A DNA stretch of 64,000 nt. Origin: Candidatus Multivoradales bacterium. GTDB lineage: Bacteria > Acidobacteriota > Thermoanaerobaculia > Multivoradales > J023. Below are positions 18,554-48,030 of this stretch, piece after piece. The translations under genes were made by a program, and so were the position numbers. Location of the stretch: the NCBI GenBank assembly GCA_965248925.1, contig CBDFLE010000005.1, positions 1,920,001-1,984,000 of the forward strand. The letters run 5' to 3'. Position 1 is the first letter of the stretch, and each line of letters starts with the position of its first letter. Under the pieces are notes generated by a model, which made no database searches, was not told the DNA's origin, and saw nothing but the letters and a program-made list of their open reading frames with translations.

Positions 18554-18747
18554 TCCCCACCTCCCACGGTGCATTGCTGAGATGTCTTATCCTAGCAAAA
18601 GCACAGAAATTCTGCCTACCTCGTAATTCCTCCCCAATTGCACTGAGGGCAGCGACGAGAGCGGGTGTCGTAGCCGCTGCACGGCTTGCCACACTCAGGA
18701 CGGGGTGGCGCTTCTCTCCGTTGATCAGATGCACCAAAAACTCACCC

Positions 18748-20811: not shown

Positions 20812-23800
20812 ATGGTAGCTGCAAACCGACCGATAAGAGCCAGAAGCCACCCGGCCTACCGGGTCACTCCATGGATGGTTTGCTTGCTGCTGGTGGCAGC
20901 CTTGTGGGTCTGCCCAACAGCCGTTTGGGCGCAGGGTCCGCGCGCGGTATTGGTGGTCGGCAATGTGAGCCTGTCAGCAGCGGATGCGGCGGTCGCGATA
21001 CGCCTGGACGCCCTGGGATTCGAGGTGTTGGTGGTCGACGACTCCAAGGCAGCTCCGAGCGACGAGCGGGGTGCCGCGTTGGTGGCGATCTCATCAAGCG
21101 TTAGACCTGCCCGCCTCGACTCCGGCTTCCGCGACCTCGAAACCCCGCTGGTGGTCTGGGAGCATCAGCTTTTCGCCGCCCTGGGCCTCACCGAAGGCGA
21201 AGAAGACACTGATTTTGGCCGCACCAGCGGTGAGACCGAAGTGGCCATCGTCCAAGCTAGTCACCCCCTTGCCGCCGGCCTGAATGGCACCCCGACAACC
21301 ACTTCGAGCCCCTCCACCTTCGCCTGGGGCCGACCTGGTTCGGCAGCAGAGGTAGTGGCCACCGAGGTTGGCAACCCCGAGCATGCCACCCTCTTCGCCT
21401 ACGAGGCTGATGTCATCATGCCCGGCCTGCTGTCGGCACCGGCGCGGCGAGTGGCCCTCTTCATGGACGGCACCAGCAGCGCCGTCTTGACCGCGGAAGG
21501 GCTGGCGCTCTTCGATGCCGCGGTAATTTGGGCCAGCAGCCGGGGAGTTCCCAACTTACGACCGGTTGTGGCCATCACCGCGCCGGTTTCCGGAGCTACG
21601 TTCACCGTTGGCGAGAGCATCACTTTCACTGCCCAGGCATCCGATGCCGATGGCAACATCGCGTCGGTCAGCTTTCAGCTCTATGGCATATCGGTGGGAA
21701 ATGCCACTACCGCGGCTCCCTACTCGCTGCGAATCTCCAATTTACCGGCGGGGCTCTATGCGCTGCGGGCGCGGGCGGTCGACGAGCGGGGCTTGGTAAC
21801 CGTCTCGGAACCGAGCTACTTCCAAGTTGGCTCGCAAGCCTATAGCGCCTTGCTGGTCGCCGGAAATGATGGGCCAACGGCCGGTGATCAGGCGATCCTC
21901 GAACACCTCAATCGCCTTGGACTGATGGTCACCACGGCGGTGGACGAAACCGTCACAGCGGACAGCGACACGAGCCACACGGTGGTGCTGGTTTCGGCGT
22001 CGGCCCGCGCCGGTAAGCTCCGGTCGGTACTTCGTGACGTCGAGACTCCGGTGATGACCTGGGACCACGGTTTCTATCGTCGGCAACAAATGACTGGCCC
22101 GATCTCTAGCGTCGATCATGGGGTTGAGGGTGATCAAGCAGCAGTTACCCTCGACGCCGGCAACTCGTTTCTGGCGGCCGGCCTCCAGGGCTCGCCGCTG
22201 CTCTTTACCCATCCTCAGACCCTCGCTTGGGGAGTAGCGAGCGACGAAGCGCAAATCGTGGCGACGCTCGCCACCGACGACGGACGCGCAGCCCTCTTCG
22301 CCTACCAGCCTGGGGCAGCCATGGTCACGGCGATCGCCCCCGCCCGCCGCCTCGGCTTTCCCCTCGCCCGCAACGCCGCCAGCGAGCTGAGTGCGGCCGG
22401 CTGGCGTCTATTCGAGACCGCGGTAGCCTGGAGTGCTGGCTTCGATGCCTTTGCCAACAACCAGCCTCCACAAGTTGATTTGTCGGCTCCAGCAGACGGC
22501 TTGGCGGTGCCGGCCGGCGAACCGATCGCCCTGGCGGCCAACGCCGTTGATCTTGACGGCAGCGTGGCGGAAGTGATCTTCAAAGCCAACGGTGAGACTA
22601 TCGCGACCACAAGTGCAGAGCCCTACTCGGCGACCTGGATGGGTGCCGCCGTCGGTCGCTACGCGGTGACCGCGGAAGCGCGAGATGACCGCGGCGCGGT
22701 GACCATCTCATCACCTGCACGAGTCGAAGTCGGCACCCCGCCAGGCTCGGTCCTGATGATCGTTGGCAGCGAGCCGAGCTCAGGCGATACGACGGTCGCA
22801 GTCCGCCTGCAATCGACCGGTTACAACGTGACCCAGATCAGCTCCGAAGCATTCTCACCGGCCGACGGGCTGGTGGCCAGCGCGCTGCTGGTGTCCGCCA
22901 CCGCCCGCGCAGGCGACCTCGGTAGGGTGCTTAGTAATCTACCGATTCCGACGCTGACCTGGAATCACCATCTATTTGACAATCTAGGCATGACCGGCAC
23001 CGAGAACGGCGTCGACCACGGCCGTGCGCCGGATCAATTCCAGCTCGAGGTGTCCGGCGGATCGTTCCTGGCCGCCGGGCTGAGTGGCGGGGTTGGGGTT
23101 TCCTCGGCGCCGTCCCGGTTCACCTGGGGCATGCCGAACAGCGAAGCGGCGGTCGTCGCAACTCTGGTGGGCGACCCGGGCCGGGCAGCAATCTTCAGCT
23201 ATGAGCGCGGCGCCTTGATGCCCGGTGGTGTTGCCCTCGCCCGGAGAGTCGGATTCTTCCTCGGAACCACCGGTGCCAACAGCTTGGTCGACAACGGATG
23301 GGCCTTATTCGATGCCGCGATGGCTTGGACAGCTGGCCTTGAGCCTGGAAACCGGCCACCGTCGGTCAGCATCACCACGCCTGCGGCCGGGACCGAGTTT
23401 GCCCTCGACGAGACCCTTACATTCTCAATCGAAGCTAGCGACATCGATGGCACAGTGGCCAGGGTTGAAGTGCTGGCGGCGGGTACCACCATCGGCGTCG
23501 CCACAGCTTCACCGTGGCAAGTCGAATGGACCGCTTCCTCGGCGGGCGTGGTGCCGATCGCCGCTCGGGCCGTTGACGATCAGGGCGCGGCGACCCCCTC
23601 GGCACCGATCTCTATTGTCATCGGCGGTGCTTCGCGAACGGCCCTGCTGATCGTTGGCGAATCGGATCTTGGCGCGGGCGATGCCGCGGTGCGCTCTCAT
23701 CTTGAACGCTTGGGGTATCAGGTTGCGGTGGCGAGTGCGACGGATGTGACGGCGGCAGAGGCCGGTGAAGTGGCGGTGGTCTTGATCTCCTCCACGGTCA

Positions 23801-26800
23801 GAGCGCGCGAGATTGATCCGGCGTTCAGCGATCTGGAGGTGCCGATCATCACTTGGGAAAACCGGCTCTACGACGATCTCGGTTTCACCGGCGATCAGGC
23901 GAACGTCGATTTTGGGCGAGCCCGGAAGCAGATCGCCATTGATGTCACCGATGGCGCACTGTTCGGTCAGCCTGATCTCGCCGGTCTCACCGGTGTTACC
24001 ACCCGTCCCCGAGCCATGGCCTGGGGCCTCCCCGGCGCAGCAGCACAGGTAGTGGCGAGGCTCGCCGACGGCTCCGGCCTGGCGACCCATTTCGCCTATG
24101 AGGCTGGCAGCGAGATGGCGGTCGGAATAGCTCCTGCAAGGCGTGTCGCCCTCGGCCTGCACAACGGTACCGCTGCTGCTCTGGCGCCAGCCGGCTGGGC
24201 GCTCTTCGATGGCGCCATCGCCTGGGCCACCGGCATCGAAATCGCCCCGCTACCCGACGACACGACCCCGCCAAGTCTGGCGATCACGGCCCCGGTAGAC
24301 GGCACCATCGTCAACACCTCAACTCCGACCATCACCCTGACCTATGACGATCCGCGCAGTGGCATCGAGGCCACGACTCTCGAAGTGCGGCTCGACGGTG
24401 GAGTGATCACCTCCAGTTGCCAGGTCACCGCCAGTGGGGCAACCTGCCAGGCGATTGCACTCGCCGAGGGCAGTCATGGCTTGACAGCGACCATCGCCGA
24501 CCTGGCGGGGAACTTGGCGACGGCGGAGGCTAGCTTCTCGGTTGAATTGTTGGTGCCAGATGCGGTTTCGCCAAGTATTTTGGTTCTTGCCCCTCATACC
24601 GGAGAAATCTTGATCGCTGAACTGCCGAGTGTGATCGTCACCTATTTCGATAGGAAAAGTGGGATCGCAGAAAGCAGCTTCCTGGCAGACCTCGACGGAG
24701 TTGCTCTAGCATGCACCGTCGGTCCTATCGAGGCCTCCTGCGACGTTACCGAACTTGCGGCAGGCCGTCACACCCTCGCTGCCAGTGTTCAAGATAGTGC
24801 CGGGAATGAAGCGGCCATCACCTTTGAATTCACGGCGCTATTGGCAAGACCAGATACCAGCGCCCCAGATCTACAAATCTCCTCGCCTCTCGACGGTACA
24901 CTTGTCGGCGACGCCACGCCCGAGATCCGAGTAGCATATGCGGACGACGACTCGGGGCCAGATCTGCAATCACTCTTGATCGAAGTCGACGGCGTCGATC
25001 TCATCTCCTGGTGTCAGATCACAGCCGACTTCGCCGCCTGCGAATCCACCACCCTGGCTTCCGGCAGTCATTCTGTCGTGGCCGAGATCAGCGACCTCGC
25101 CGGTAACACCACGACTGTTAACCGAGTGTTCACTCTAGATCTCGATCTACCGGTGGTGATCACCTCACCGCAATCGGGTCTCCTCACCCAAGCGTCGACC
25201 CTCGATGTCATCGGCACCGTATCGCCCTTGGCCGACTCGGTCGAAGTTGCTGGGATCACCGCCCAGCTCAGCGAAGGCTCGTTCGAAGCACTCAACGTTC
25301 CGCTCACAGAGGGTAGCAACACCCTGACCGTGATCGCCCGCAACGTGGCCGGTGGCAACGGCCTCGCCAGCGTAACCCTGGTACGCGATACTGAAGGGCC
25401 GCGAATCACCTTGATCAACCCTCCCGATGGCTTCGTCACCACTTCCCCGCACCTCATCATTACCGGTGAAGTCGTCGATCTTACCTCCAGCAACACTGAA
25501 GCGGCCGTCGTTTCGGTGGAGGTCAATGGGCTCGTCGCGGAAGTCGACCACCGGAGCTTCGTCGTGCCGGAGCTGCTCTTACAACCTGGGGAGAACTCCA
25601 TCACCGCTGTCGCCCGAGATGCGCTTGGCAACAGCCACAGCACAACGCGAATCATCCACCGGGTGATTGATTCCTCAGCCCGTCTAGAGGAGATCAGCGG
25701 CAACCTCCAGTCAGCGGCCGTTGGCACGGCGCTCGCCGAGCCGCTGGTGGTGCGCCTGACAGATGCCTTTGGAACGCCGCTGATCGGTCAACAAATCACC
25801 TTTGAAGTGACCCGTGGTGACGGTTCTCTGATCGACTTTCCCGAGGCCGTGCGCACTTTCCGAGTTCGCACCGACAGCAATGGACTAGGGTCGGCGAACT
25901 TCACCCTCGGCCGCCGGGCGGGATCAGGAAACCATGAAGTCACCGCCTCTGCTGCCGGCCGAATTGGCTCGGTGATCTTCTGCGCCTCGGGCACTTCCAG
26001 AATTCCAGAGCGAATCGTCAGGATCGCTGGCGATAATGCGATGGGAAGCCAGACCGCGATTGCCGGCAAGCGTTTCGCCAAGCCCCTGCTTACCCAAGTC
26101 TTCGACTCCTACGGCAATCCAGTCGCCGGGGTCACCGTCACTTACCAGGTTACCGATGGCGGCGGCAGCTTTGCGGGTCAGGCCACGGCTTTCGCTACCA
26201 CCGATGCCGACGGCAAAGCAGCCGTTTTCTTTGCTCTCGGCCCCGAGGAGGGGGTCAATAACAACCGAGTAGAGGCAGCGTTCGATGATGGGCAGGCAGC
26301 GCCCGCGATGTTCCAAGTCGGCGGCCAGATCCCCGGACCCGTCGAGCTGACCTCAGTGATTGGCGTCGTACTCGACAACGCCGATTTACCTGTGCCGGGC
26401 GTCACGGTGACGATCGCCCACTTGACAACGGTGAGCGATGCGCAAGGGCGCTTTCAGATCACCTCCACACCCGCCGGCAGACTGATGCTCGAAGTCGATG
26501 GAGCAACGGCCACCCGCCCTGGCACCTGGCCCCATCTGGAATTCGAACTGATCGCTGTCAGTGGCCGAGAAAACCAACTCGGCATGCCGATTCGTCTGCT
26601 GCCACTCGATGATGGCGGCGTGCGCTTGGTGGGCGGAAATCAAGACGTGACCCTACCGATCGCCGGCGTAGCTGGTGTCGAGTTGACCGTCTTCGCAAAC
26701 TCGACCACCTTCCCCGATGGCAGCTCCACCGGCGCCCTCTCTCTCACCCAGGTTCACGCCGACAAAGTACCGATGGTAGCTCCCATGGGCTCCAACTTCA

Positions 26801-28617
26801 TGCTCGCCTGGACCGTCCAACCGCCAGGGGTGAAGTTCGACCCACCGGCACGGATCGCCATCCCCAACATGGGCGAGGCGCCGGGTACGGTGGTCGACAT
26901 GTTCAGCTTCGATCATGAGCTGGGAGAATTCGTCTCGATCGGTACCGCGAGCGTCAGCGAGGATGGCAGTCAATTGCTCTCGAATCCTGGATCGGGAGTG
27001 ATCAAGAGCGGCTGGCACGGTTGCGTGCCGCCGCCGGCACCCCCGAGCAATCTCTGCAAAGGTGGAGCGTGCACTGCCTGCGCACCCACCGGCCCGGTCA
27101 GTACCTGCACCGAGTGTCAGCACTGCGACGGACCCGACGGCTGCGAACCCAACAGGATTGTCGATATTCAAGTCACCATCGAAGAAGATCGGGATACCGT
27201 GCCCGAAGGCAATACGCCGATCTCGCCCAGAAGAGCCCAGACCCGACCCATAGCGACACCGGCCAAGCAAGCGACACAACAACGCACCGTTGGGCTCAAC
27301 GCGATGGTGAGCTTCACCGCCAAAGCCACCCCCGAAGGCGAGTGCCAAGACCCGCTGACCTATGAGTGGGACTTCGGCGATGGCGAAACCGACATGGGCA
27401 AAACAGTCGAGCACCGCTTCAAAAAGAGAACCGTGGCCAACGATGATATGCCATTCATGACCACCGTCACCATCGCTTGCCCGAGCTGCCCGGACATGAC
27501 ACTTGACGAAGTCTGGGAAGTAGAAGTCGAGGGTAGCATCGAGATCCAGCGGGTGATCTCGGATCAGCTGCCAGGGCTGACCTGCAACTTCCTCGATCGT
27601 GCCGCAGGGGACGGCCCCAACAACCCGATGCTGATGGGCTGCAGGAGTGGTTCAGACGCCCAGATCCGGGTCGTCACCAAGATTGAACCACCAGCAGCGG
27701 AACCGCTAGCGCGAATCCAGGTGCGCCGCAAAGGCGGCACTGAGCGCAAGGGAGAGAACTTCGCCAAGCAGGCACCCGCCGAGACGGCGGTGATGTTCCA
27801 GGCAGACAATGGTGCAGAAATCTACGAGATCGTCGCTGGATTCTTTGAGAACGATACTGTCGGACTAGAGGATGAAGAGATCATGAACGGCGACATCTTT
27901 CCGCACAATGTGCAGGTGGTTACTCTTGGGGACTACGAAGGTGCGGCAGGAACACTGGAGTTTCAAGGTGCAATTCCGGGGACCGGCGTAGCCGGCGCCC
28001 TGCTGCGAGCATATCTCACGGGCGCTACCCCTCCACGCGCACTAGCTACGCCAAGACCTACAGCAGCAAGCAGTCTCGACCATCCAGTCGGCATTCTCCC
28101 TGCGGCAGGATCATGCACCGACACTTCTACCTTCGAGTACTCTTTCTCGTCGTCTACGTCCGAAAGTACTGAAGTAGCAAAGACCGATCAGATCGAAGAA
28201 ATCATCCGCGAAATAGTCATGCCCCACTCCGAATCTATCCGGGCGTTCTTCGCGAATTCGGACAGTCCAACCGCGATATTCCCGCAGGCGACTGGTGAAG
28301 GTCCCTGGACCGACTCTAGAGGCATCACTTGGTCGCAAATGAATCACCCTCTACTATTCCTGGCCTTTGGCAGTGTCCGCATAAACACGGAAGTCTTAGA
28401 AGTAGAAGTTCGAAAGTTCGACCTCAAAGTACTCAGAGTCAGATTTCGAGGTAACTTCGAGGATGCGTACGATTTCGCTATCAAGAAGTTCGGAAACCGC
28501 AACGGTGCAATCACCCAATCCGGCTATTCTTCACTAGGGCAAGAAGGCCATGTTTTCAGAGACTCAATCGAGTTTGAGCGCACCGCAAACTACTCACTAG
28601 GTATCTTCTTCCCATGA
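20812..28617 (+). CDS. Giant secreted Ig-repeat protein (2601 aa) with ZU5-like domain, PKD and a low-GC C-terminal putative toxin domain
   Basis: Signal peptide; four ~300-aa modules; many Ig/Big domains; QPPGVKFDPPARIAIPN...KSGWHG; YEWDFGDG (PKD); DAYDF in the low-GC tip. Confidence 0.8.
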   Translation: MVAANRPIRARSHPAYRVTPWMVCLLLVAALWVCPTAVWAQGPRAVLVVGNVSLSAADAAVAIRLDALGFEVLVVDDSKAAPSDERGAALVAISSSVRPARLDSGFRDLETPLVVWEHQLFAALGLTEGEEDTDFGRTSGETEVAIVQASHPLAAGLNGTPTTTSSPSTFAWGRPGSAAEVVATEVGNPEHATLFAYEADVIMPGLLSAPARRVALFMDGTSSAVLTAEGLALFDAAVIWASSRGVPNLRPVVAITAPVSGATFTVGESITFTAQASDADGNIASVSFQLYGISVGNATTAAPYSLRISNLPAGLYALRARAVDERGLVTVSEPSYFQVGSQAYSALLVAGNDGPTAGDQAILEHLNRLGLMVTTAVDETVTADSDTSHTVVLVSASARAGKLRSVLRDVETPVMTWDHGFYRRQQMTGPISSVDHGVEGDQAAVTLDAGNSFLAAGLQGSPLLFTHPQTLAWGVASDEAQIVATLATDDGRAALFAYQPGAAMVTAIAPARRLGFPLARNAASELSAAGWRLFETAVAWSAGFDAFANNQPPQVDLSAPADGLAVPAGEPIALAANAVDLDGSVAEVIFKANGETIATTSAEPYSATWMGAAVGRYAVTAEARDDRGAVTISSPARVEVGTPPGSVLMIVGSEPSSGDTTVAVRLQSTGYNVTQISSEAFSPADGLVASALLVSATARAGDLGRVLSNLPIPTLTWNHHLFDNLGMTGTENGVDHGRAPDQFQLEVSGGSFLAAGLSGGVGVSSAPSRFTWGMPNSEAAVVATLVGDPGRAAIFSYERGALMPGGVALARRVGFFLGTTGANSLVDNGWALFDAAMAWTAGLEPGNRPPSVSITTPAAGTEFALDETLTFSIEASDIDGTVARVEVLAAGTTIGVATASPWQVEWTASSAGVVPIAARAVDDQGAATPSAPISIVIGGASRTALLIVGESDLGAGDAAVRSHLERLGYQVAVASATDVTAAEAGEVAVVLISSTVRAREIDPAFSDLEVPIITWENRLYDDLGFTGDQANVDFGRARKQIAIDVTDGALFGQPDLAGLTGVTTRPRAMAWGLPGAAAQVVARLADGSGLATHFAYEAGSEMAVGIAPARRVALGLHNGTAAALAPAGWALFDGAIAWATGIEIAPLPDDTTPPSLAITAPVDGTIVNTSTPTITLTYDDPRSGIEATTLEVRLDGGVITSSCQVTASGATCQAIALAEGSHGLTATIADLAGNLATAEASFSVELLVPDAVSPSILVLAPHTGEILIAELPSVIVTYFDRKSGIAESSFLADLDGVALACTVGPIEASCDVTELAAGRHTLAASVQDSAGNEAAITFEFTALLARPDTSAPDLQISSPLDGTLVGDATPEIRVAYADDDSGPDLQSLLIEVDGVDLISWCQITADFAACESTTLASGSHSVVAEISDLAGNTTTVNRVFTLDLDLPVVITSPQSGLLTQASTLDVIGTVSPLADSVEVAGITAQLSEGSFEALNVPLTEGSNTLTVIARNVAGGNGLASVTLVRDTEGPRITLINPPDGFVTTSPHLIITGEVVDLTSSNTEAAVVSVEVNGLVAEVDHRSFVVPELLLQPGENSITAVARDALGNSHSTTRIIHRVIDSSARLEEISGNLQSAAVGTALAEPLVVRLTDAFGTPLIGQQITFEVTRGDGSLIDFPEAVRTFRVRTDSNGLGSANFTLGRRAGSGNHEVTASAAGRIGSVIFCASGTSRIPERIVRIAGDNAMGSQTAIAGKRFAKPLLTQVFDSYGNPVAGVTVTYQVTDGGGSFAGQATAFATTDADGKAAVFFALGPEEGVNNNRVEAAFDDGQAAPAMFQVGGQIPGPVELTSVIGVVLDNADLPVPGVTVTIAHLTTVSDAQGRFQITSTPAGRLMLEVDGATATRPGTWPHLEFELIAVSGRENQLGMPIRLLPLDDGGVRLVGGNQDVTLPIAGVAGVELTVFANSTTFPDGSSTGALSLTQVHADKVPMVAPMGSNFMLAWTVQPPGVKFDPPARIAIPNMGEAPGTVVDMFSFDHELGEFVSIGTASVSEDGSQLLSNPGSGVIKSGWHGCVPPPAPPSNLCKGGACTACAPTGPVSTCTECQHCDGPDGCEPNRIVDIQVTIEEDRDTVPEGNTPISPRRAQTRPIATPAKQATQQRTVGLNAMVSFTAKATPEGECQDPLTYEWDFGDGETDMGKTVEHRFKKRTVANDDMPFMTTVTIACPSCPDMTLDEVWEVEVEGSIEIQRVISDQLPGLTCNFLDRAAGDGPNNPMLMGCRSGSDAQIRVVTKIEPPAAEPLARIQVRRKGGTERKGENFAKQAPAETAVMFQADNGAEIYEIVAGFFENDTVGLEDEEIMNGDIFPHNVQVVTLGDYEGAAGTLEFQGAIPGTGVAGALLRAYLTGATPPRALATPRPTAASSLDHPVGILPAAGSCTDTSTFEYSFSSSTSESTEVAKTDQIEEIIREIVMPHSESIRAFFANSDSPTAIFPQATGEGPWTDSRGITWSQMNHPLLFLAFGSVRINTEVLEVEVRKFDLKVLRVRFRGNFEDAYDFAIKKFGNRNGAITQSGYSSLGQEGHVFRDSIEFERTANYSLGIFFP
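20941..24235 (+). repeat. Four tandem ~900-bp intragenic modules (alpha/beta domain plus Ig domain)
   Basis: Modules start near 20941, 21841, 22744 and 23635; each has ALL.VG...GD.A...L..LG...WG.P...A.RR..F...GW.LFD.A..WA. Confidence 0.85.
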
Positions 28618-30371: not shown

Positions 30372-30421
30372 GCGACCACAAGACTAGCTCCATAGATTTT
30401 CGCTAGGAAAAGAGGCATCGC

Positions 30422-33400: not shown

Positions 33401-36400
33401 TTCGGTACAAAGAGCGGTGTACTCAGCTCCGAAGGCCAGGTGCTGACCCTCGACATCCGGCTGTTGGCGCCGACCAGCCGCTTCGCCAGTCAGCTCTTCG
33501 ATGCCAACAACCACCGCTACCCGATCTCGGTCGACAGTGGCGGGGTGCTCGGCGGCAGCCTGGGCATCTTCGATGGTGACAACGGCGAGAACCGCGATGC
33601 GATGTTGCTCGAGATCGGTCAGGGAGGCATCTTCCACCGCTTCGATGCCGCTAGCTCCGTGCTGTCGAGCACCGGCCGCGAGGTGGTGCTTGAGGGCGGT
33701 GATCCATCGGGTCTGGTGGTCACCCGCAAGGTGTTCATCCCCCTCGATGGCTATTTCGTGCGCTACCTCGAAGTGCTGTTTAATCCTTCTCCGCAGCCGA
33801 TCACGGTGGATGTGCGAGTTGATAGCTTCTTCGAGTTCTTGACCAATGTCAGGAATGGCGCCGCGTTCTTCGATCCCTTGACCCTGGTGAGCACCTCGAA
33901 CGGCGATCAGCGATTGCTGGTTGGAGCGGCGGCGCCCACCGGCACCGAGGTGGATCGCTGGCTGGTGCTCGAGGCGATTTCGCAAAGCGCCAACGGCCCG
34001 GTGTTCGATGCCCTCTATCCGACCTTCGGCTACCTCTTCCAGGGTCCAGGGGCGGCACTCGGCATCGACCGCTTGACCTACGAGACCGACTTCGCCGGCC
34101 GCTTCAGCCGTCTGCGCTCGCAGTGGAACCAACTCACCGTGCTGCCGGGCGACAGCATCACCCTGATGCACTTCGCCACTCAACAGACCAGTATCGAAGC
34201 TGCCACCGCGAGCCAGGAACGACTGCTCAGCCTGCCTCCCGAGGGCCTCGCCGGCTTGACCGCGGGCGAACTCCAGACCCTGGCCAACTTTGCCCCACCG
34301 CCCGGTGGCAGCAGCCTGCTCGACCCACTGCCGGCCCTCGATGGCGGGATCACCGGCACGGTGCTCGAAGGCGACGGCAGCAGCCGGGTAGCCAACGCTG
34401 AAGTGCGCTACCGCTCGACCAGCCCATTCTTTGGCCGCCTGCTCGAAGTCGAAGCCGATGCTGCCGGCGACTACACCCTCACCACCAGCGAGGCGATCAA
34501 CAACGGCAACCGTAGGGTGATTCCGCGAGTCTCTTTCCGCGTCGATGCCACCAACCCGGACACCCGGGGAGTCTCGCCAGCCTATGCCGGCGACTTCCCC
34601 GCCGGAGGTCCAAGCACTCAGCAAGACATTGTCTTTGTCGACACCAGCTTGGTCGAAGGCACCGTGCGCCGCGCCGACGGCAACGTGGTGAGCTTCGGCG
34701 ATGTGGTGCTGCGCGCTCGCCAGCAGCTGATCAACGTCGCCAGGCCGGTCCCCGGCGATGGCCGCTTTGAGTTCAACGGTCTGCCCCCCGAGGTCTACTC
34801 CCTGGTCGCCAGCCAACCCCATCCGCAGGGTACGGCGCTGCGCACCGCCGGCTCGGCCCTGGTGTCGACAGGCGGACAGCGAGTGTTGGCCGACCTCACC
34901 ATGCCGCCGACCGGTGGCGTCGAGGGCATCGTGCGCACCGGCGATGGCTTCCCCGGCGTTGGTCTGGAGCTGGCGCTGCGCGGCCCCGACTTCGGCCGCT
35001 TCACCACCAGCGACAGCGGTGGCCAGTACCGCTTCCTCGACGTTCCTGCGGGCGTCTACACCCTGCGCGGGATCGAGCCGATCACCCGCATCGCTACCGA
35101 GATTCCGCTGGATCTAGTGGCCGGCTCCGTGCTGCAACTTGATTTGCAGCTCTTCGCCCTCGGCTCGGTCATCGTCGAGGCGCAGCTGTCCGACGGCACC
35201 CCGGCCGTGGGTAGCGAGGTACGGATTCAGATCGCAGTGCTGGGTAGCGGCTTCGTCGCTGCCGGCACCACCGATGCAACCGGCAAGCTACGGATCGACG
35301 ACGTACCGGTGGGCAACCTCACCGTGCGCGTGCTGCATCCGCAGAACCCGTTCTTGGCCATCGACGAAAGCGCGCTGCTGAGCACCGGGGGCGGCACGCT
35401 GACGGTGCCGGTAGAGTTGCCGATCGACCAACCACCAGCGATCGAGATGGTGCTGCCAGTGGCCGGCTCGGTGGTCGCGCCGGGCAACCTGCTGACCCTG
35501 CAAGCCGCCGCGGCAGACCTGGTGGGCCTCAGCCGGGTCGACTTCCTGGTCAACGGTACCGAGGTCGGCAGCGACACCACTGCGCCCTATCGGATCGTGT
35601 ATCGGGTGGTTGAACCGCCAACCACGATCCTGTCGATCAGCGCCATCGCCCGCGACAATGGCATCAACTCGGCTCAAGCGGTGCCGGTGGCGGTGACCGT
35701 CGGTGCTGATTCGACACCGCCTACCGTGACGCTGACCGCGCCGGCTGACGGCGCCTCGGCCATCGAGGGTAGCCGAGTGATCTTGAGCGCCAACGCCACC
35801 GACGGCGGCGCCGTCGCCAGGGTCGAGTTCCGCATCGATGGGGTGTTGTTAGAAATCGTCCAGAACGCTCCTTATAGCTCTGCTCTCGACCTCGACCCGA
35901 ATCTCGCGCCCAGCGGTCCGGTGGCCGTGACCCTCACCGCTACCGCTTTCGACTTCGCCGGCAACAGCAGCAGCGATAGCCGCACCCTGACGGTGTTGAG
36001 CGATCAGGGGCCGAGCATCGCCATCGTCAGTGCGCCAGCCAGCGGCTCGGTGCTCACTGAGGGCGAGTTGGTGCGCTTCGAGGTCGACGCCAGCGATGAC
36101 CGGGGCGCCGAGGTCGAGCTGCGGATCAATGGCGAGGTGCTGCAAACGCGGCCCTACCAGCCCTTCCGCTTCGATTTCACCGTTCCTTCACCGAGCGAGC
36201 TAGCGTCGCCATTCGAGGTCGTCTTCATCGCTCGCGACGAGCGCGGGCAGACCGCCTCGACGCCGGCAATACAGCTGCAGATCGCATCCGACGAACCGCC
36301 CACCGTGGCCATTACCAGCCCGGCCGCGGGCTTGCTGGCCACCGAGGGCGAGTTATTGCAAATCGCCGCTAGCGCTAGCGATGACCTGGGCGTGGTTTCA

Positions 36401-39400
36401 GTGGCATTCTTCCTCGACCAGGAGGCGATCGGCGAACTGACAGAGGAGCCCTACGAGCTAGAGCTTCGCCTGCCAGCAGGGGAGGCCGGCAATCTGGCAC
36501 TGCGAGCCATCGCGACGGACACCACCGGCCAGACCCGCGAAGCCACGATCACCCTGGTGCGCCAGGACGATTCAGTAGCGCCAACGGTGAGCTTGATCTC
36601 ACCTCTCGACGGCACTACCCTGCCGGTGGGATTCTCAGATCTGATCTTGCTGCTCGACCACAGCGCATCGAACGCAACCGCCGCAGGATTCGACCTCGAT
36701 GGCGACGGCAGCGACGACAAAGTCAGCCGAGTGCAGGTGATCGCCGCCCGTGCCCTGCTGCAACAGCTCGATGCCAGCACCAGCCGAGTGGCCTTGGTGC
36801 GCATGCTCGCCGGCGCGGCGGCCGAAGGCGGCCTGACCAACGACTTCGCCAGCATCGATCTGCGTCTTGAGCAGCTGCTCCCCGGCCTGACTTCCGGCCA
36901 CGCTAGCTTCACCGCCGGTCTGGAAGTGGCGCGCGATCAGCTCACCAGCCTGGCCGCTCAGCGCACCGCACGGCCGCTGATCGTGCTGTTCTCTGATGGC
37001 CAGGGCGGCATCTTCCCGACCGAGATCATCGAGCGCCTGATTGCCCACGACGCGGTGGTCCACACGGTGGCGGTGGGGGCTACGGCCGATCCGGAAGTGC
37101 TCGAACAGATCGCCTTGGCCACCGGTGGCACGGCGAGCTTGCTGGCGACGACCACTGATCTTGCCACCATGCTCGCCACCATCGGTCGCCTGGGGCTCGC
37201 CCAACTGACGGTGGAGGCCGAGGCCACGGATGACATCGCCTTGCGCGAGGTCACCTTCCGGGTCACCGGTGGCGGCCTTGACCAGAGCCTGGTGCTCGAG
37301 CAACCGCCCTACCTCACCGCCTTGCCGCTACCTGAATTCGCTGCCCCGACGGACCTCACCCTCACCGCCGAAGCCCGTGACTTCGGCGACAATCTCGCCC
37401 TCAGTGCAGCGACCCAGGTGACCGTGACACCAGTCGACAGCTCACCAGATCTGACTATCTTGCTGCCCGACCGCGGTATTGCCGGCGACACCATCACTCT
37501 GCTCGGCCGCTACTTCTCGCGAGTCGCCAATGCCCACAGCGTGCGCTTCGACGGGTTGCTAGCCACCGTCACTTCAGCCTCCAAATTCGAGCTTCAGGTA
37601 ACGGTGCCAGGGGGAGTGCGCAGCGGCCTGGTGACCGTCACCCTCGACGGCCTGACCACCGCCGGCCTGCGCTTCGAGCTCGATAGCGACTTCGACGGTT
37701 TGAGCGATGAGGAAGAAGCAGCCCTGGGCACAGATCCCACCAACCCCGACAGCGACGGCGACGGCCTCAGCGATGGCGCCGAGGTTGATGAGCACGGCAC
37801 CGACCCCCTTGCCGCCGACTCCGACAGCGACGGCATGGACGACGGCTTCGAGATCGCCCAGGGCTTTGACCCGAACGACCCGGCGGACGCGGGCGGCGAC
37901 CCCGATGGTGATGGTCTGAGCAACGTCCGCGAATTCCAGGCCGGCAGCGACCCCTTCGACCCGGACACCGACGGCGACACCCTGACGGACGGCGACGAGG
38001 TCGACCTCTACGGCACCGATCCCACCCTGCGCGACACCGATGGCGGTGGCCGTGAGGATCAACAAGAGATCGCCGATGGCACTGATCCTCTCGATCCCTC
38101 CGACGATGTCTTCGACTTGCCGGTGGTGCTGATCGATGGCGGCGGCTTTGATTGGGATCTGGTCCGCGGCGGCCTGATCCATCACGGTCTGAACGATGCC
38201 TTCGACCTGGCCTTCATCCGCATCGTCAACAATTTGACGCCCTGCCTTGGCTTCGGTCCCAGCGCTTGCCGGCGGAGCGCCGCTTTTGAAGACGGTGGCC
38301 GCGAAATCATCCTCAGCCGGCACGAGCACAGTGGCGAGCCCGGACTGTTCTATTCTCGTAAGGTCTTCGTCCCCGAGGACGACCGCTTCGTGCGCTACCT
38401 CGAAATCATCGACAACGAAACGGCGGCGGCGAAGGAAGTTACGGTGCGGATCAAGTCCACGGTCGGTACCAGTTTCCTCACCCAGCGGGTCGCCACCTCC
38501 TCCGGGGCGGTAGATTTCGGCGTCCGCGATCGTTGGATCGTCACCGACGACGAAGACCTCACCGGCTCGCCGGCCGTGGCCTTCGTCTTTGCCGGCGTCA
38601 CCACTCGGACCTTGCCGAGCCGGGTCTTCACCAATGCTCCGGGCAACGATGCCATCGAGTATTCGGTGACCTTCACGGTGCCTGCGGGCGAGCGGCGACT
38701 GATGATGCACTTCGGCGTGCAAGCCATTGAACAAGTCACCGCCACGGCCCAGGCCGAGCGCGTCAGCCGCCTCGAAGGCAGCACCCTGGATGGCCTGTCG
38801 GCCACGGAGCAGGCGCAGATCGTCAACTTCTTTGCCTATCCAGACGCCGACCTAGATCATCTCGCGGACGCCGACGAGCCGGTTCTGGGCACCGATCCTC
38901 TGAATCCCGACAGCGACGGCGACAGTCTGCTCGATGGGTTCGAGGTCGAATTTGGTTTCGATCCGCTGGTGGCCGACGACCCGACCGCCGATCCCGACAG
39001 CGACGGTCTGTCGAACTTCGATGAGCAGGCAGCCCTCGGCGATCCGACCAATCCAGACACCGATGGCGACGGCCTGGACGACGGCCAAGAAGTAGCGAAC
39101 GGCTCCGAGACCGCGCTACGGGACACCGACGCCGATGGCCTCGACGACGGCCCGGAAGTGCTGACCCACGGCACCGATCCCACCGCCTTCGACACCGACG
39201 GTGGTGGCCTCGGCGATGGTGACGAGATCGATCGGGGCAAAGACCCTCTCGACCCCACTGACGATATCTTTGAGGTCGCCCTACCCCTGGTGCTGACCGA
39301 TGGCGACGGCTTCGAGTGGGACATCCAGCAGCACGGCGGCCAATACGCCGGCACCGAGGGGGCCTTCACCGGCAGCAGCACACCGTTTATCTTCGACGGT

Positions 39401-41851
39401 GCTTTCGAGCAGTTGGTCGCCGGCAAGAGAGTTCGGGTCGGGCAATGGGAAACCGCCCTGGCGGAGGACTTCGGCCGTGAGTTGCGCACCGGGCAGTTCT
39501 TCATTGCCGACGTTGGCGAGCCTCGGGTCTGGCGACAGCGCAAGATCTTCGTGCCAGAAGATGACAGCTTCGTCCGCTACCTGGAGATCTTCGAAAACGT
39601 TTTGGACACCCAAGCGGTGACCTTCACCGTCGATATCGAATCCCGGCTCGGCTCTGGCTTTGACACCTTGATCGTGCAGACCTCGAGCGGTGATCCAACT
39701 TACACCGCCGAGGACGACTGGATCGTCACCGACGATCTCGACGGATTCGGCACCCCGGCCGTCGGCCACGTCTTCCACAGCGCCAACGGGCTGGTCACAC
39801 CGAGCGCAGTGTCGACTACCGCGCCGGGCTCCAACCTGGTGACCTTCACCTACGAGCTGACGGTGCCACCGAGTGGAACGGTGATTCTGATGCACTTCGG
39901 CATCCAGGCTTTCGACCGCACGACGGCGCTAGCCACCGCCGACCGCCTGATGCGCCTCGGCGGCAGCGCCCTAGATGGCTTGGCGCCGGCCGAGCGCGAC
40001 ACCATCGTCAACTTCTTCCCCTACCTGGACGCCGACTTCGACCGCCTGAGTGATGCCGACGAGGCGTTGGCCGGCACCGATCCCAACAACCCCGACACGG
40101 ACGGCGACGGCCTCAGCGACGGCTTCGAAGTCAGCAACGGTCTCGACCCACTGACCTTCTCCCTCGACGCCGACAACGACGGTCTGGAAAACGCGGACGA
40201 GATCGCCCGTGGTACCCACCCCGCGCTGCCCGACAGCGACAGCGACTTGTTGCTCGACGGCGCGGAGGTCTTCACCCACCTCACCGATCCACTGGCGCTC
40301 GACAGCGACCTCGGTGGTGTCGAAGACGGCCGCGAAGTGATCTTCGACGGCACCGATCCCCTAGATGCCAACGACGACCAGGGACCGATACAGGTCAATC
40401 AATCCGTCTTCGGCGTCGACCCAGCCCTGGCCGCCGGGCCGACCGGCAACCTGCATATTGTCTGGAAGGACATTCGCACCGGTTGCGAGGAGCTGTTCTA
40501 CAGCCTGCTCACCCCGACTGGTGAGACGCTGATCGACGACACTCAGATCACCGACGACTGCGACGACGCCAATGTCCCACGGGTCGCCAGCGACGCCACC
40601 GGCCACCTGCATGTGCTGTGGACCAACTCCGACGATCTGCGCTACCTCAAGCTCGACCCGGACCTCGACGATCAAGACGGCTCCGCATCGACCGCGGCAA
40701 CCCTACTGGTGGTGGCTCCCCAGACCGTGCTGCCACTACCGGACAACGATGGTGGCGGACCGGTCAGTGCCCCCGACACCGTGCCCACTTCGGCCAAGGT
40801 CTTCGCCTTCGAAGATGCCTTCCGCTACGACCTCGCCGCCGACGGCGCCGGCCACGTTCACATTGTCTGGCAGAACGAAGTTGCCCCCAGCGCCCCGGTT
40901 TCCTCACCGCTAGGTGTCAAAGGCGGTCCCCCCGGCGACTACGACAACGAAGTCCACTACCTGCAACTCGATACCGCGGGTATCGAAGTAGTCAGCGATC
41001 AAGAGATTTTCCTCGCCGCAGCAAGCCCCGACGGACCCGAAGGCTTCCCCGGAATCGCAATCGATGCCAGCGGCGATGTCCACCTGCTGTGGCGCGGCGA
41101 AGACCAAGACCTCGGCGGCTGGGGCATCTTCTATGCCCAACTCGCCGCCATCGATGGCGGCTTGCGGATCGCCCCCACCAACCTGACGCCCGGCGCCGAC
41201 ACGGCGATCAGCTACCCAAGCCTCGCCATACAGCCAGCTGGCGATCAGGTGGCGGTGGTGTTCGAAGATCTGGCAAGCGCGGGAGCTGAGATCTTCCTGC
41301 TACGGATCAATCCACGGCTCGACGACCGTAACGGAGACGCCGCCAACCAGGCTCAGATCACCACTCTTGGCCGCACCCTACTGACCGACGACGACGGCAA
41401 CGCCAGCGAGCGGCCGGCGGTGGCGCTCGATGCTCGCGGCGACCTGCACCTCAGCTACTTCGAAACCGTGCCAGATCCCTTCTCTACCTCAGGCGACCAG
41501 GCCGTCATCGAGCTGGCGGTATTCGATTCCTCGGGAGTGGTGAGGATTCCGGCACTGACTGCCGGCGATGCTTTCGATCCCGACGCCCGCGCGCCACGGC
41601 CCGAGCCGGCGGTCTTCGGTGTCTCCTCCGCATTGACCTGGTACGTACAAGACACCGACTTCGCCGTCGACTTCACAGTCCTGCTGCGCACCTTCCACCC
41701 CGACGCCGACGGCGATGGCCTGGGCCGGTACCTCGAGCTTGAGCTGGGCACCGATCCGACCCTCGCCGACACCGATGGCGGTGGGCGGAGCGACGGCGAC
41801 GAGGTTTTGATTGATGGCACTGACCCGCTCGATGGCGCTGATGATCTTTGA
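30422..41851 (+). CDS. Giant secreted protein (3809 aa): TSP3-like Ca-binding repeats, carboxypeptidase-regulatory-like repeats, Ig, vWA and IPT/TIG domains
   Basis: Signal peptide; five clusters of D.DGDGL.D..E...GTDP; repeated G.V.G.V...G..V.GA.V; vWA MIDAS-like LLLDHSAS and LFSDG; three RK(V/I)F(V/I)P..D.FVRYLE-type modules. Confidence 0.85.
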   Translation: MNSGNRHQLTNSGRACLLLCLLAIGSFTAPTQAQLDATCDAQLLNRSVQVNADGSFFLANVPAEEGLHRVRVHCTPDQAALNQGQSSLFRLIPNGQVTLTGIDFDNFLPIPEAIQVEVTPGVLTQVGQMVGISVTGILSDGSQVDMGRVDEGTEYWISNPRLARLITTGDQRQVLIALERGRVLVGARRDGVVGAVEVDLQIPNDADGDGMTDEFEELLGLDPNDPNDAFDDPDGDNLSNLREFELGTDIYSSDTDADGLSDGREVELGTLPNDPDTDGDGLNDGQELARGTDPLSADSDLDGIVDGLEVGLGTDPLIENATTSLIGQVRDEQDLIQAGASVIVFGRLVATTDGAGRFILDHVPADQGSVVAFARALRVVVDQEGNSMVEVLEGASAATLPRPDSFTDMGLIRVRPMSGRVSGAVLDPRGDAVAGVRVTLTLGLERRSTQADITGVFSFENLPAGSFNLEAIDGQTGLRGRALGVLPGDGEALADIQLGAFGAISGRVLDSDGETPAGPGVAIEVRTAPDQPPVEIALTDRESSYRFGFLPPGTYTLDAIDGQGNRGRTTVVIEETAQIFEADVVFLGRGVVNGVVEGASGQLLVGAAVEISSRGLFDQLLIGTSGADGRFSIAGVFVGEFDAVARDLTSNLTGSAVGEIRHQGDSEELTIVVEETASVEGRVFELDGVTPVGGAEVTVSTLGLRRSGLSAANGDYRFDGLPLDNYSLSARHPLNADCASSSVSLDAPLEVRTRDLVMHGLGTVEVTVRYADGTLAPGARVSLTSGIPCVARRSALADANGRATFNGLPTGGLEALATSPVGGLQGQIRSTLLPGEILALTVELGPSGVIFGTVFGNGGFTPAAGVEVHWRGRTVRTGIDGSYRFDWAKLSQNPHTVEANTLDRSRRARVSGILIAADGGSVRRDLVLSAVGTVTGVVRDEAGLAVANASVTVTTLAAGGPNRQVLSDVNGIYFASSVAVGDIRAEAKDGEGGFGTKSGVLSSEGQVLTLDIRLLAPTSRFASQLFDANNHRYPISVDSGGVLGGSLGIFDGDNGENRDAMLLEIGQGGIFHRFDAASSVLSSTGREVVLEGGDPSGLVVTRKVFIPLDGYFVRYLEVLFNPSPQPITVDVRVDSFFEFLTNVRNGAAFFDPLTLVSTSNGDQRLLVGAAAPTGTEVDRWLVLEAISQSANGPVFDALYPTFGYLFQGPGAALGIDRLTYETDFAGRFSRLRSQWNQLTVLPGDSITLMHFATQQTSIEAATASQERLLSLPPEGLAGLTAGELQTLANFAPPPGGSSLLDPLPALDGGITGTVLEGDGSSRVANAEVRYRSTSPFFGRLLEVEADAAGDYTLTTSEAINNGNRRVIPRVSFRVDATNPDTRGVSPAYAGDFPAGGPSTQQDIVFVDTSLVEGTVRRADGNVVSFGDVVLRARQQLINVARPVPGDGRFEFNGLPPEVYSLVASQPHPQGTALRTAGSALVSTGGQRVLADLTMPPTGGVEGIVRTGDGFPGVGLELALRGPDFGRFTTSDSGGQYRFLDVPAGVYTLRGIEPITRIATEIPLDLVAGSVLQLDLQLFALGSVIVEAQLSDGTPAVGSEVRIQIAVLGSGFVAAGTTDATGKLRIDDVPVGNLTVRVLHPQNPFLAIDESALLSTGGGTLTVPVELPIDQPPAIEMVLPVAGSVVAPGNLLTLQAAAADLVGLSRVDFLVNGTEVGSDTTAPYRIVYRVVEPPTTILSISAIARDNGINSAQAVPVAVTVGADSTPPTVTLTAPADGASAIEGSRVILSANATDGGAVARVEFRIDGVLLEIVQNAPYSSALDLDPNLAPSGPVAVTLTATAFDFAGNSSSDSRTLTVLSDQGPSIAIVSAPASGSVLTEGELVRFEVDASDDRGAEVELRINGEVLQTRPYQPFRFDFTVPSPSELASPFEVVFIARDERGQTASTPAIQLQIASDEPPTVAITSPAAGLLATEGELLQIAASASDDLGVVSVAFFLDQEAIGELTEEPYELELRLPAGEAGNLALRAIATDTTGQTREATITLVRQDDSVAPTVSLISPLDGTTLPVGFSDLILLLDHSASNATAAGFDLDGDGSDDKVSRVQVIAARALLQQLDASTSRVALVRMLAGAAAEGGLTNDFASIDLRLEQLLPGLTSGHASFTAGLEVARDQLTSLAAQRTARPLIVLFSDGQGGIFPTEIIERLIAHDAVVHTVAVGATADPEVLEQIALATGGTASLLATTTDLATMLATIGRLGLAQLTVEAEATDDIALREVTFRVTGGGLDQSLVLEQPPYLTALPLPEFAAPTDLTLTAEARDFGDNLALSAATQVTVTPVDSSPDLTILLPDRGIAGDTITLLGRYFSRVANAHSVRFDGLLATVTSASKFELQVTVPGGVRSGLVTVTLDGLTTAGLRFELDSDFDGLSDEEEAALGTDPTNPDSDGDGLSDGAEVDEHGTDPLAADSDSDGMDDGFEIAQGFDPNDPADAGGDPDGDGLSNVREFQAGSDPFDPDTDGDTLTDGDEVDLYGTDPTLRDTDGGGREDQQEIADGTDPLDPSDDVFDLPVVLIDGGGFDWDLVRGGLIHHGLNDAFDLAFIRIVNNLTPCLGFGPSACRRSAAFEDGGREIILSRHEHSGEPGLFYSRKVFVPEDDRFVRYLEIIDNETAAAKEVTVRIKSTVGTSFLTQRVATSSGAVDFGVRDRWIVTDDEDLTGSPAVAFVFAGVTTRTLPSRVFTNAPGNDAIEYSVTFTVPAGERRLMMHFGVQAIEQVTATAQAERVSRLEGSTLDGLSATEQAQIVNFFAYPDADLDHLADADEPVLGTDPLNPDSDGDSLLDGFEVEFGFDPLVADDPTADPDSDGLSNFDEQAALGDPTNPDTDGDGLDDGQEVANGSETALRDTDADGLDDGPEVLTHGTDPTAFDTDGGGLGDGDEIDRGKDPLDPTDDIFEVALPLVLTDGDGFEWDIQQHGGQYAGTEGAFTGSSTPFIFDGAFEQLVAGKRVRVGQWETALAEDFGRELRTGQFFIADVGEPRVWRQRKIFVPEDDSFVRYLEIFENVLDTQAVTFTVDIESRLGSGFDTLIVQTSSGDPTYTAEDDWIVTDDLDGFGTPAVGHVFHSANGLVTPSAVSTTAPGSNLVTFTYELTVPPSGTVILMHFGIQAFDRTTALATADRLMRLGGSALDGLAPAERDTIVNFFPYLDADFDRLSDADEALAGTDPNNPDTDGDGLSDGFEVSNGLDPLTFSLDADNDGLENADEIARGTHPALPDSDSDLLLDGAEVFTHLTDPLALDSDLGGVEDGREVIFDGTDPLDANDDQGPIQVNQSVFGVDPALAAGPTGNLHIVWKDIRTGCEELFYSLLTPTGETLIDDTQITDDCDDANVPRVASDATGHLHVLWTNSDDLRYLKLDPDLDDQDGSASTAATLLVVAPQTVLPLPDNDGGGPVSAPDTVPTSAKVFAFEDAFRYDLAADGAGHVHIVWQNEVAPSAPVSSPLGVKGGPPGDYDNEVHYLQLDTAGIEVVSDQEIFLAAASPDGPEGFPGIAIDASGDVHLLWRGEDQDLGGWGIFYAQLAAIDGGLRIAPTNLTPGADTAISYPSLAIQPAGDQVAVVFEDLASAGAEIFLLRINPRLDDRNGDAANQAQITTLGRTLLTDDDGNASERPAVALDARGDLHLSYFETVPDPFSTSGDQAVIELAVFDSSGVVRIPALTAGDAFDPDARAPRPEPAVFGVSSALTWYVQDTDFAVDFTVLLRTFHPDADGDGLGRYLELELGTDPTLADTDGGGRSDGDEVLIDGTDPLDGADDL

Positions 41852-47275: not shown

Positions 47276-48030
47276 TGCCTCGCCAATAAAATACCGACCT
47301 GTTTTCTCAACGACTTACAGCCTATAGGCCGGAACGAATACATCTTGCTTGACGGAGCCCGTCAGGGCATGATCGGCCCATGATCCGAGCTTCCTTGGCT
47401 TCCCTCGCTTCCCTATTCCGATCCCGATCTGATCCTCGAGAACGCCGCTCTTCGCCAACAGCTCGCGGTTCTTCAGGGCCAGAAGCCGCGCCGCAGAATG
47501 CCGACGCTCGGTCGACTCTTCTGGGTCGCTCTTCGCCGTTCCTGGCCGAGATGGCGTGATGCTCTGATTCTGGTGAAGCCCGAGACGGTCGTCCGATGGC
47601 ATCGGCTCGGCTTCCGTGCCTACTGGACATGGAAGTCCAAGAAGAGGCGGCCAGGTCGACCGAGGATTGATCCAGAGCTGCGGAAACTCATCCGCCGACT
47701 GGCAGAAGATAATCCGACTTGGGGAGCACCCAGGGTACACGCCGAGCTTCGTCTCCTCGAATTCGATGTCGCTGAACGGACGGTCTTACGATACCTACCG
47801 AAGCCGGCCAACCCCGATGCTGTTGGTCGCTGGATAGTCTTACTACGACAGCACCGCAAAGCGTTGGTCGGAATGGACTTCCTCGTTGTCCACACGCTCA
47901 CTTTCCGGCTACTCCACGTCCTCTTCATCGTCCACCGCGAACGCCGGCGCATCGTCCATTGGGCGGTGACCAGAGCGCCGAATCTGGACTGGATTCGCCA
48001 GCAGCTACGCCAGCTCGTCGTCCTCGAACG
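47276..48030 (+). mobile_element. rve/integrase-core transposase element remnant, copy 1 (its terminal TG lies at 45258-45259, across the intron)
   Basis: ENAALRQQL, VKPETVVRWHRLGFRAYWTWKS, GRP, NPTWGAPRVHAEL, MDFLVV; frameshifted and 3' truncated. Confidence 0.8.

Follow-up and report, generated by a model that had tools for sequence, protein, structure and literature searches.

What three large genes, read in the same direction and each starting like a gene for an exported protein, do together in an acidobacterial genome is the question raised by a 64,000-nucleotide stretch of Candidatus Multivoradales bacterium (Acidobacteriota; Thermoanaerobaculia; assembly GCA_965248925.1, contig CBDFLE010000005.1, positions 1,920,001 to 1,984,000 of the forward strand), referred to here at its full length as the window. 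The genes, P0001, P0002 and P0003, encode proteins of 2601, 585 and 3809 amino acids (aa). An original prediction, made from the DNA letters, took them for an undescribed polymorphic toxin system consisting of a giant carrier, an immunity gene and a giant partner. Our analysis favours a reading close to this one, to which we assign a probability of roughly 0.6: the locus would encode a polymorphic toxin-like system that is exported by Sec, has immunity proteins that are exported too and includes a conserved giant partner, and that is found mainly in the Acidobacteriota.

The layout of the locus was as predicted. All three open reading frames (ORFs) lie on the + strand and, as judged by eye and with no predictor, begin with basic residues followed by a hydrophobic run and a site of AxA type, a Sec-signal-like arrangement that fits the Sec-dependent class of trafficking. 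The stop codon of P0001 overlaps the start codon of P0002 in an ATGA at 28614-28617. The guanine-cytosine (GC) fraction is 0.63 over residues 1-2239 of P0001 and 0.654 in P0003, compared with 0.551 in the P0001 tip and 0.528 in P0002; the alpha/beta domain of the tip and P0002 are both below their surroundings, and the drop in third-position GC starts at about nucleotide 27800, inside the tip. Judged from composition, the best explanation is that the tip and P0002 form a foreign, low-GC cassette whose two parts would have arrived together.

P0001 runs from its signal peptide through four repeats of an unassigned domain of about 200 residues plus Big_7, an immunoglobulin (Ig) stalk, a transthyretin (TTR)-like domain, a ZU5 domain, a Cys-rich linker and a PKD domain to a variable tip. 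Pfam, the sequence and a model of the ZU5 part upheld the proposed order (Ig stalk, ZU5-like domain, GWH boundary, Pro/Cys linker, PKD, tip). Pfam recognized Big_7 (four copies), Big_13, Glucodextran_B (three), Big_1, CarboxypepD_reg (residues 1849-1896) and PKD, and returned no family for residues 1900-2110 and 2240-2601 or for P0002. The boundary reads S-G-W-H-G-C (residues 2066-2071) and is followed by prolines and an eight-cysteine linker. At the other end of the protein, the first copy of the 200-residue domain had no Pfam match at E <= 10 and no PDB sequence match, and relatives of P0001 bear different N-terminal modules, for example CBM96, or a repetitive region in genome G001.

A pattern scan of public genomes, one per species, found relatives of the TTR-like plus ZU5 module at 126 places, of which we kept 76 loci. 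Most are in metagenome-assembled genomes (MAGs) of Acidobacteriota/Thermoanaerobaculia, with single cases in Entotheonella, Nitrospirales, Chromatiales, Sedimenticola, Phycisphaerae, Binatia and a Roseibacillus MAG. In a set of 41 related genomes, the module gives a strong match in 17; several of these have more than one, some in tandem, and the number of matches reaches eight in G026.

The module is where similarity stops. Up to the boundary, 30 aligned modules are 43-71% identical to the window copy; their tails have only the linker and PKD domain in common with P0001, or nothing. Module matches in the 41 related genomes nearly all end at query residues 230-290, at or just past the GWH. Clustered on their distal 150 residues, 78 tails (from the 76 public loci and the window, some cut by contig ends) fell into 33 clusters beyond the near-invariant GW(H/G) of the boundary. 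Over about 600 residues, two tandem genes in genome G029 show 88-100% identity in each 50-residue segment and match at 50 of 50 positions just before the boundary, and identity is about 25% from about 50 residues after it; this abrupt break is the pattern that cassette exchange would be expected to leave. A conserved stalk with variable C-termini beyond a sharp boundary, one of two genetic marks of polymorphic toxins that we took from Zhang et al. 2012 (PMC3482391), was thus what we found.

Most tails belong to no known family, and those assigned by Pfam point to the cell wall. Tips other than that of the window matched Peptidase_M15_3 (26.7 bits, cut-off 23.2), the 3D domain (47.7 bits), PG_binding_1 and DUF6973. 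Tips of the peptidoglycan type would imply periplasmic targets, and these would fit exported immunity proteins. In two tails of cluster 6 (L015:4572-6641 and L048:18202-20325), each about 700 residues long, PKD and PG_binding_1 are joined to a long C-terminal part without a family; a signal-peptide gene encoding some 300 aa comes next in both, and these tips look cell-wall-targeting.

The second mark, a tip-specific gene directly downstream, was present as genetic linkage. The distance between carrier and partner ranges from none to 8.4 kb, and the genes in this gap (counted as + strand ORFs from 150 aa upwards) change in step with the tips: tail cluster 0 is paired with gap-gene cluster 0 in nine loci, tail cluster 2 with gap-gene cluster 1 in four, tail cluster 3 with gap-gene cluster 3 in three and tail cluster 11 with gap-gene cluster 6 in two. 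Most of the printed gap-gene N-termini are signal-peptide-like by eye, gap genes are duplicated in three loci, and gap-gene clusters 1 and 3 are HEAT-repeat proteins by Pfam, a type listed among immunity proteins (PMC3482391).

P0003 is the constant member of the locus. Its Pfam matches are CarboxypepD_reg (eight copies), Big_7 (four), at least seven TSP3_bac repeats, TIG and VWA_2 (30.4 bits, cut-off 27). Of 58 informative loci, 52 encode its N-terminal domain downstream of the module, in the same orientation (52 of the 76 kept; in the remaining 18, the downstream sequence was too short to judge), and six with at least 5 kb downstream lack it (L042, L044, L064, L073, L101 and L105). At the level of genomes, the domain was found in 18 of the 41, including all 17 with a strong module match, counts that are not independent because the genomes are related to each other. 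The fragmented genome G019 has the partner with only a weak module match, and G009 has a distant module and no partner. Variable tips, intervening genes that change with them and two co-occurring giants had all been anticipated, and all were recovered.

In the cassette of the window itself, the two-domain model of the tip, an Ig-like sandwich (model residues 1-132) and an alpha/beta domain (133-362), has a predicted local distance difference test score (pLDDT) of 95.4. The last 362 residues of P0001 matched 151 clusters (50% identity) at E <= 0.001 in a metagenome-protein library of 1.84 billion representatives. With few exceptions among the 150 clusters listed, the match is at or near the C-terminus, in proteins of 86-2266 aa. 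Across 37 matches scanned, carriers include Ig/ZU5-type stalks, TSP3, FG-GAP, fn3, LamG, transglutaminase and RCC1, and no Pfam family covers the tip; the source names are 'PKD domain-containing protein' or 'hypothetical protein'. The window tip type is mobile and is carried on unrelated architectures. Near-invariant residues of the family (model numbering) are F162, H185, G188, D312, Y314, D315, G332 and G340, with the D-x-Y-D about 50 residues from the C-terminus.

A word-indexed search with P0002 returned P0002 itself, and its relatives came from genomic context and profile comparison. In G029, a carrier with the window tip type (40% identity over module and tip) is followed by a 567-aa exported protein that is 21% identical to P0002 (BLASTP, E 5e-06). 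In four Verrucomicrobia/Kiritimatiellae loci the tip type sits on different carriers, each with a signal-peptide gene of about 330 aa that overlaps it or lies within 13 nucleotides; these four genes match residues 35-309 of the P0002/G029 pair with an hhalign probability of 96.8% (E 3e-10), and a genome search with the P0002 family led to the same four loci. Of 7 loci with the window tip type, 6 have a P0002-family gene directly after it, and these span phyla and differ in their carriers.

These results bear on the simplest alternative, that three unrelated large surface-protein genes are neighbours by accident and that the low GC is ordinary compositional drift. That P0002 matched only itself in the word-indexed search would agree with this, as would the finding of the tip type in just 2 of 401 sampled Acidobacteriota genomes, a rarity that also fits the low GC of the cassette. 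The partner is nevertheless syntenic in nearly all informative loci, in several phyla, it accompanies every strong module at the genome level, and profile-level homology ties P0002 to the neighbours of the same tip elsewhere; an accidental neighbourhood is already contradicted by these data and we give it almost no credence.

The Pfam ZU5 model (PF00791) did not match the P0001 segment at E <= 10 (its best score genome-wide, 12.6 bits, was elsewhere), and a PDB sequence profile search with the segment returned only ankyrin-3 (E 0.15). A model of residues 1926-2078 built from 44 aligned modules reached a pLDDT of 91.7. Foldseek placed the ankyrin ZU5A-ZU5B structure at the top (E 1.5e-4), followed by ankyrin-B, UNC5b and GAIN domains. 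VIA-align, an independent all-against-all structural search, ranked the ankyrin ZU5 chain 3f59 first (Z 10.7, root-mean-square deviation (rmsd) 2.7 over 122 residues), then 6m3q (Z 10.3) and 3ud1 (10.1), all of them ZU5 chains; lower came the GAIN domain of BAI3 (8.0), CD97, GPR126, UNC5b (6.9) and the FIIND domains of CARD8 (6.4) and NLRP1 (5.6). Modelling and structure comparison thus confirmed a ZU5 beta-sandwich as the predicted fold of residues 1926-2071. The ZU5 call of the original prediction was right by fold and not by the Pfam sequence model, and because that model fails, membership in the superfamily rests on fold only. A lead towards teneurins for this part, from unnamed clusters and weak TTR_TEN1-4 and FN-plug rows (0.80-0.84) among language-model atlas features, was dropped once the ZU5 fold was clear.

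PIDD, GAIN and FIIND domains cleave themselves at H-x-S/T motifs. The module shares with the ZU5/GAIN/FIIND domains of ankyrin, UNC5, adhesion G-protein-coupled receptors, NLRP1 and CARD8 both the fold and a conserved histidine beside a nucleophile-type residue at the C-terminal end of the domain. Across 97 distinct modules, the GW motif is missing from the boundary in one, a histidine follows it in 82, a cysteine lies within three residues of it in 87 and a His-Cys or His-x-Cys pair follows it in 75; a second motif, [FY][SQ]F[DR]H, is present in 96. By analogy with the H-x-S/T domains, the ZU5 domain would cut the chain at the conserved W-H-(x)-C, the place at which its ZU5, GAIN and FIIND relatives cut, in P0001 probably at W-H-G|C (H2069, C2071), and such a cut would free the tip from the stalk. 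The module differs from the known domains in that its candidate nucleophile is a cysteine, its motif is not universal and the Pfam ZU5 model fails, with cleavage at the level of a prediction.

The structural relatives can also be read another way. The locus might be a variable apparatus for adhesion or kin recognition, in which the stalk and the TSP3/vWA partner build a surface or matrix structure, the tip and its exported neighbour fit as lock and key, and the ZU5 domain is a joint that is cleaved but stays associated. Adhesion-type modules (Ig, PKD, TSP3, vWA and TIG) make up nearly the whole of both giants, the GAIN domains of adhesion receptors are among the nearest structural relatives of the module, some tails are Ig domains with no neighbouring gene, and no toxin fold is demonstrable for the window tip. 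Against such an apparatus, several tips have peptidoglycan-directed enzyme domains (M15, 3D and PG_binding_1); HEAT-repeat proteins among the neighbours, duplication of neighbour genes and one orphan among them are in keeping with immunity genes, and the nearest feature neighbours of the tip are antibacterial toxin families that have been tested. We consider this explanation rather unlikely, and favour the polymorphic toxin-like system.

The feature neighbours in question come from a language model, in which the alpha/beta domain of the tip is nearest to clusters with DUF3289 (0.96; 22% of members), Colicin_M (0.93; 47%) and DUF6402 (0.92). Toxins of the colicin M/DUF3289 type target lipid II, and their immunity proteins are periplasmic. 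In published tests DUF3289 proved to be an antibacterial effector that acts in the periplasm, and in structure it is a homologue of colicin M (PMC11148199, PMC12135965). The D-x-Y-D near the C-terminus of the tip recalls the colicin M motif DxYD(x5)HR, and the Cmi and Pmi proteins of colicin M systems are exported, as P0002 would be by its signal peptide (PMC8469651). Since the recognition value of this neighbourhood is low, a colicin M-type identity of the domain serves as a lead only. As far as Pfam sees, P0002 has no relation to Cmi or DUF943, and a search for Colicin_M in 401 Pseudomonadota genomes found none for comparison.

Several observations weigh against a toxin system, the first of them concerning the tip. 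Pfam gave it no family and PDB sequence profiles nothing relevant, so no toxin family could be assigned; the Pfam models of Colicin_M, DUF3289 and DUF6402 did not match it; hhalign against DUF3289, with 2 and then 113 sequences, gave probabilities of 0.05% and 0.4%; and the tip family keeps the D-x-Y-D of the colicin M motif with no HR. Fold searches with the two-domain model returned Ig matches, with no chain at Z >= 8 and no colicin M structure in lists filled by the Ig sub-domain. (The only row spanning the alpha/beta part, 9jdi_A, the C-terminal domain of a Bacteroides fragilis type VI secretion system (T6SS) effector, was rejected as too weak at Z 5.3 and rmsd 6.7.) In some tails the last domain is a plain Ig one, for example He_PIG (Pfam). 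The cleavage motif is imperfect, the cysteine after GW being missing in 10 of the 97 modules and the histidine in 15. As to the cognate gene, G001 has the tip type at 32% identity and no P0002-family gene in a genome that is 91% complete; one metagenome locus, seen as two near-identical copies, has a P0002-family gene with no such tip in 2.5 kb upstream; six of the 52 partner loci have no middle gene (L043, L093, L104, L108, L109 and L113); and 585 aa is large for an immunity protein. Finally, no outer-membrane export or delivery component was among the Pfam matches of 14 neighbouring window ORFs, no secretion component was among the flanking-gene clusters shared by related loci (three of them Pfam-scanned), and the same scans yielded no recognized way across two outer membranes. 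A co-fold of the tip with P0002 residues 30-320 scored 0.00 against a mark of 0.32 in a run without controls and counts neither way. In G001, a 140-aa ORF with a lipoprotein-like N-terminus (L047:5931-6353, +) follows the carrier and may be an alternative cognate partner.

How new the system would be depends on comparison with known ones. Zhang et al. 2012 count ZU5 as one of the peptidases that release Sec-dependent and TcdB/TcaC polymorphic toxins, describe it at the N-terminus of RHS proteins, in contrast to HINT near the toxin, and report related ZU5 domains from large bacterial surface proteins that also contain adhesion modules and hydrolases (PMC3482391). With the Sec- and type II secretion-dependent toxins of that paper the present loci share a signal peptide, a long repetitive stalk, a sharp boundary, variable C-termini, a matched gene immediately downstream (a HEAT-repeat protein in some loci) and ZU5, a listed processing peptidase. 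They differ from the class in having no RHS repeats, an Ig-domain stalk, a conserved TSP3/vWA giant encoded in the locus, middle genes that all look exported where inspected, and ZU5 directly before the tip, the position the paper gives to HINT; the paper's motif is CxH, compared with W-H-C or W-H-x-C here. The word 'undescribed' in the original prediction accordingly holds for the architecture and fails for the class, since Sec-dependent polymorphic toxins with ZU5 autopeptidases were already listed (PMC3482391). Our search of the literature on ZU5, polymorphic toxins and Acidobacteria turned up no account of this architecture; it did not extend to Additional File 1 of PMC3482391, where related proteins may be listed.

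The same paper is the source of a further alternative, that the giants are surface-anchored carriers of exoenzymes that degrade or remodel extracellular polymers, with the exported neighbours inhibiting these enzymes, acting as chaperones or helping to bind substrate. This is the role that Zhang et al. 2012 suggested for the ZU5 domains of large surface proteins carrying hydrolases and adhesion modules (PMC3482391), and the CBM96 and LamG modules of some relatives and the hydrolase-like character of some tips agree with it. Yet abrupt cassette swapping with a matched neighbour gene is not expected of nutrient-acquiring enzymes, the recognizable enzyme tips aim at peptidoglycan, a bacterial target, and the tip travels together with its neighbour gene between unrelated carriers and between phyla. 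An exoenzyme role seems to us improbable.

Contact-dependent inhibition (CDI; CdiA/CdiB/CdiI) and Rhs/T6SS systems also resemble the locus in their long stalk, a boundary motif before a variable tip, an adjacent cognate gene and orphan immunity genes. In contrast to CDI, no two-partner secretion (TPS) domain, filamentous haemagglutinin (FHA) repeats, CdiB/TpsB or VENN motif was detected by Pfam in the three proteins and the 14 neighbouring ORFs, and in contrast to Rhs/T6SS, no RHS/YD repeats, PAAR or VgrG were among the Pfam or NCBIfam matches. The stated absence of RHS/YD, haemagglutinin, VgrG/PAAR, TpsB and type I secretion (T1SS) features held among the Pfam matches of these ORFs. The locus would work like a polymorphic toxin system, with both genetic marks that we looked for, and on the features tested it appears to be neither CDI nor Rhs/T6SS nor a member of the colicin M family.

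The data show how the locus is built, its ZU5 fold, the exchange of tips at the boundary, exported neighbours that match the tips and a partner that stays constant. From this we infer toxicity, immunity, cleavage, the role of the partner and the export route as follows. P0001 is a long Ig-repeat stalk in which the TTR-like plus ZU5 module marks the point where C-terminal tips are exchanged by recombination. The alpha/beta domain of the tip probably acts on the cell envelope or periplasm of competitors, and exported P0002 would bind the tip and protect the producer. P0003, with its Ca-binding TSP3 repeats and vWA domain, had been put forward in the original prediction as a scaffold or adhesin; in our reading it would be the constant component that presents or anchors the carrier or helps to deliver it. 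A bolder version is possible and we hold it tentatively, leaning against it: that the two giants, ZU5 and TSP3/vWA, together with the exported gene matched to the tip form a previously unrecognized delivery route for envelope-targeting toxins, the partner being the export or presentation machine and ZU5 cutting itself to release the tip on contact. This would be a new class of contact-dependent antagonism in Acidobacteria and scattered phyla, with a new toxin fold and immunity family.

The features of the locus and its surroundings are collected in Table 1. Within P0003, Pfam returned no family at E <= 1 for a domain some 250 residues long, scanned in two copies, or for a C-terminal stretch of roughly 430 residues in which H-[IVL]-[VL]-W motifs recur. 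By Pfam, the neighbours in the window are regulators, an unrelated exported protein and a group II intron-type reverse transcriptase, with no known secretion component. The reverse transcriptase and a transposase-like ORF both lie about 3.5 kb past P0003, and with them mobile elements flank the locus. The two regulator ORFs upstream of P0001 are divergent from it and overlap each other by about 196 nucleotides on the same strand; they may be a single regulator split by a frameshift or two overlapping genes. The ORF directly after P0003 has an internal Met followed by a signal-peptide-like stretch, matches no Pfam family and is not conserved beside related loci. Conversely, a PAP2-superfamily gene of about 550 aa with a twin-arginine signal (E 1.4e-07) occurs after the partner or in the gap in 20 of 76 related loci (for example L109:16170-17819, L067:18015-19697 and L087:14268-15947) and was not found beside the window locus.

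Table 1. Positions of the genes, domains and neighbouring ORFs in the window.
Feature	Position	Strand	Basis or remark
GAF + sigma-54 activator ORF	13080-16592	-	
Ser/Thr kinase + AAA_16 ORF	16397-18574	-	
P0001, carrier with signal peptide	20812-28617	+	ORF list and translation
P0001 residues 41-1130, four copies of the ~200-residue domain without a family, each followed by Big_7	20932-24200	+	
CarboxypepD_reg (TTR-like), first half of the conserved module, P0001 residues 1846-1925	26347-26586	+	Pfam E 4e-08; conserved in 30 aligned modules
ZU5-fold domain, P0001 residues 1926-2071, ending G2067-W2068-H2069-G2070-C2071	26587-27024	+	Model and structure matches
Pro/Cys-rich linker, spacer and PKD (residues 2149-2205), start of the variable tail	27025-27528	+	Sequence, Pfam
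Tip sub-domain 1, Ig-like beta-sandwich, P0001 residues 2240-2371	27529-27924	+	Model pLDDT 95.4; Ig-type matches only, Z up to 7.8
Tip sub-domain 2, alpha/beta, P0001 residues 2372-2601, candidate toxin domain, low GC	27925-28614	+	Conserved H, D-x-Y-D, G
P0002, exported, candidate cognate immunity protein	28614-30371	+	
P0003, exported partner giant	30422-41851	+	Pfam
P0003 conserved N-terminal domain, residues 31-215	30512-31066	+	Synteny search
P0003 ~250-residue domain, first scanned copy	33419-34201	+	
P0003 vWA domain	~36734-37141	+	Pfam VWA_2
P0003 ~250-residue domain, second scanned copy	38099-38911	+	
P0003 C-terminal region, ~430 residues	40409-41701	+	
ORF directly after P0003	42223-43854	+	
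Reverse transcriptase ORF, group II intron type	45340-46725	-	RVT_1 E 1.9e-33
Transposase-like ORF	47498-48190	+	HTH_32/HTH_21

Acidobacteriota are abundant in soils and little is known of how they compete, and Thermoanaerobaculia MAGs commonly contain this type of locus. Should it prove to be a toxin system, it would bring a new carrier architecture with ZU5 at the point of release, together with a constant giant partner that has no counterpart in known classes of polymorphic toxins. It would also bring at least 33 tip types, most of them without a known family, and, in the tip of the window, a domain family of 151 clusters with its own cognate family of exported partners. The locus may further provide a bacterial setting in which to ask whether self-cleavage of the ZU5/GAIN type releases a payload.

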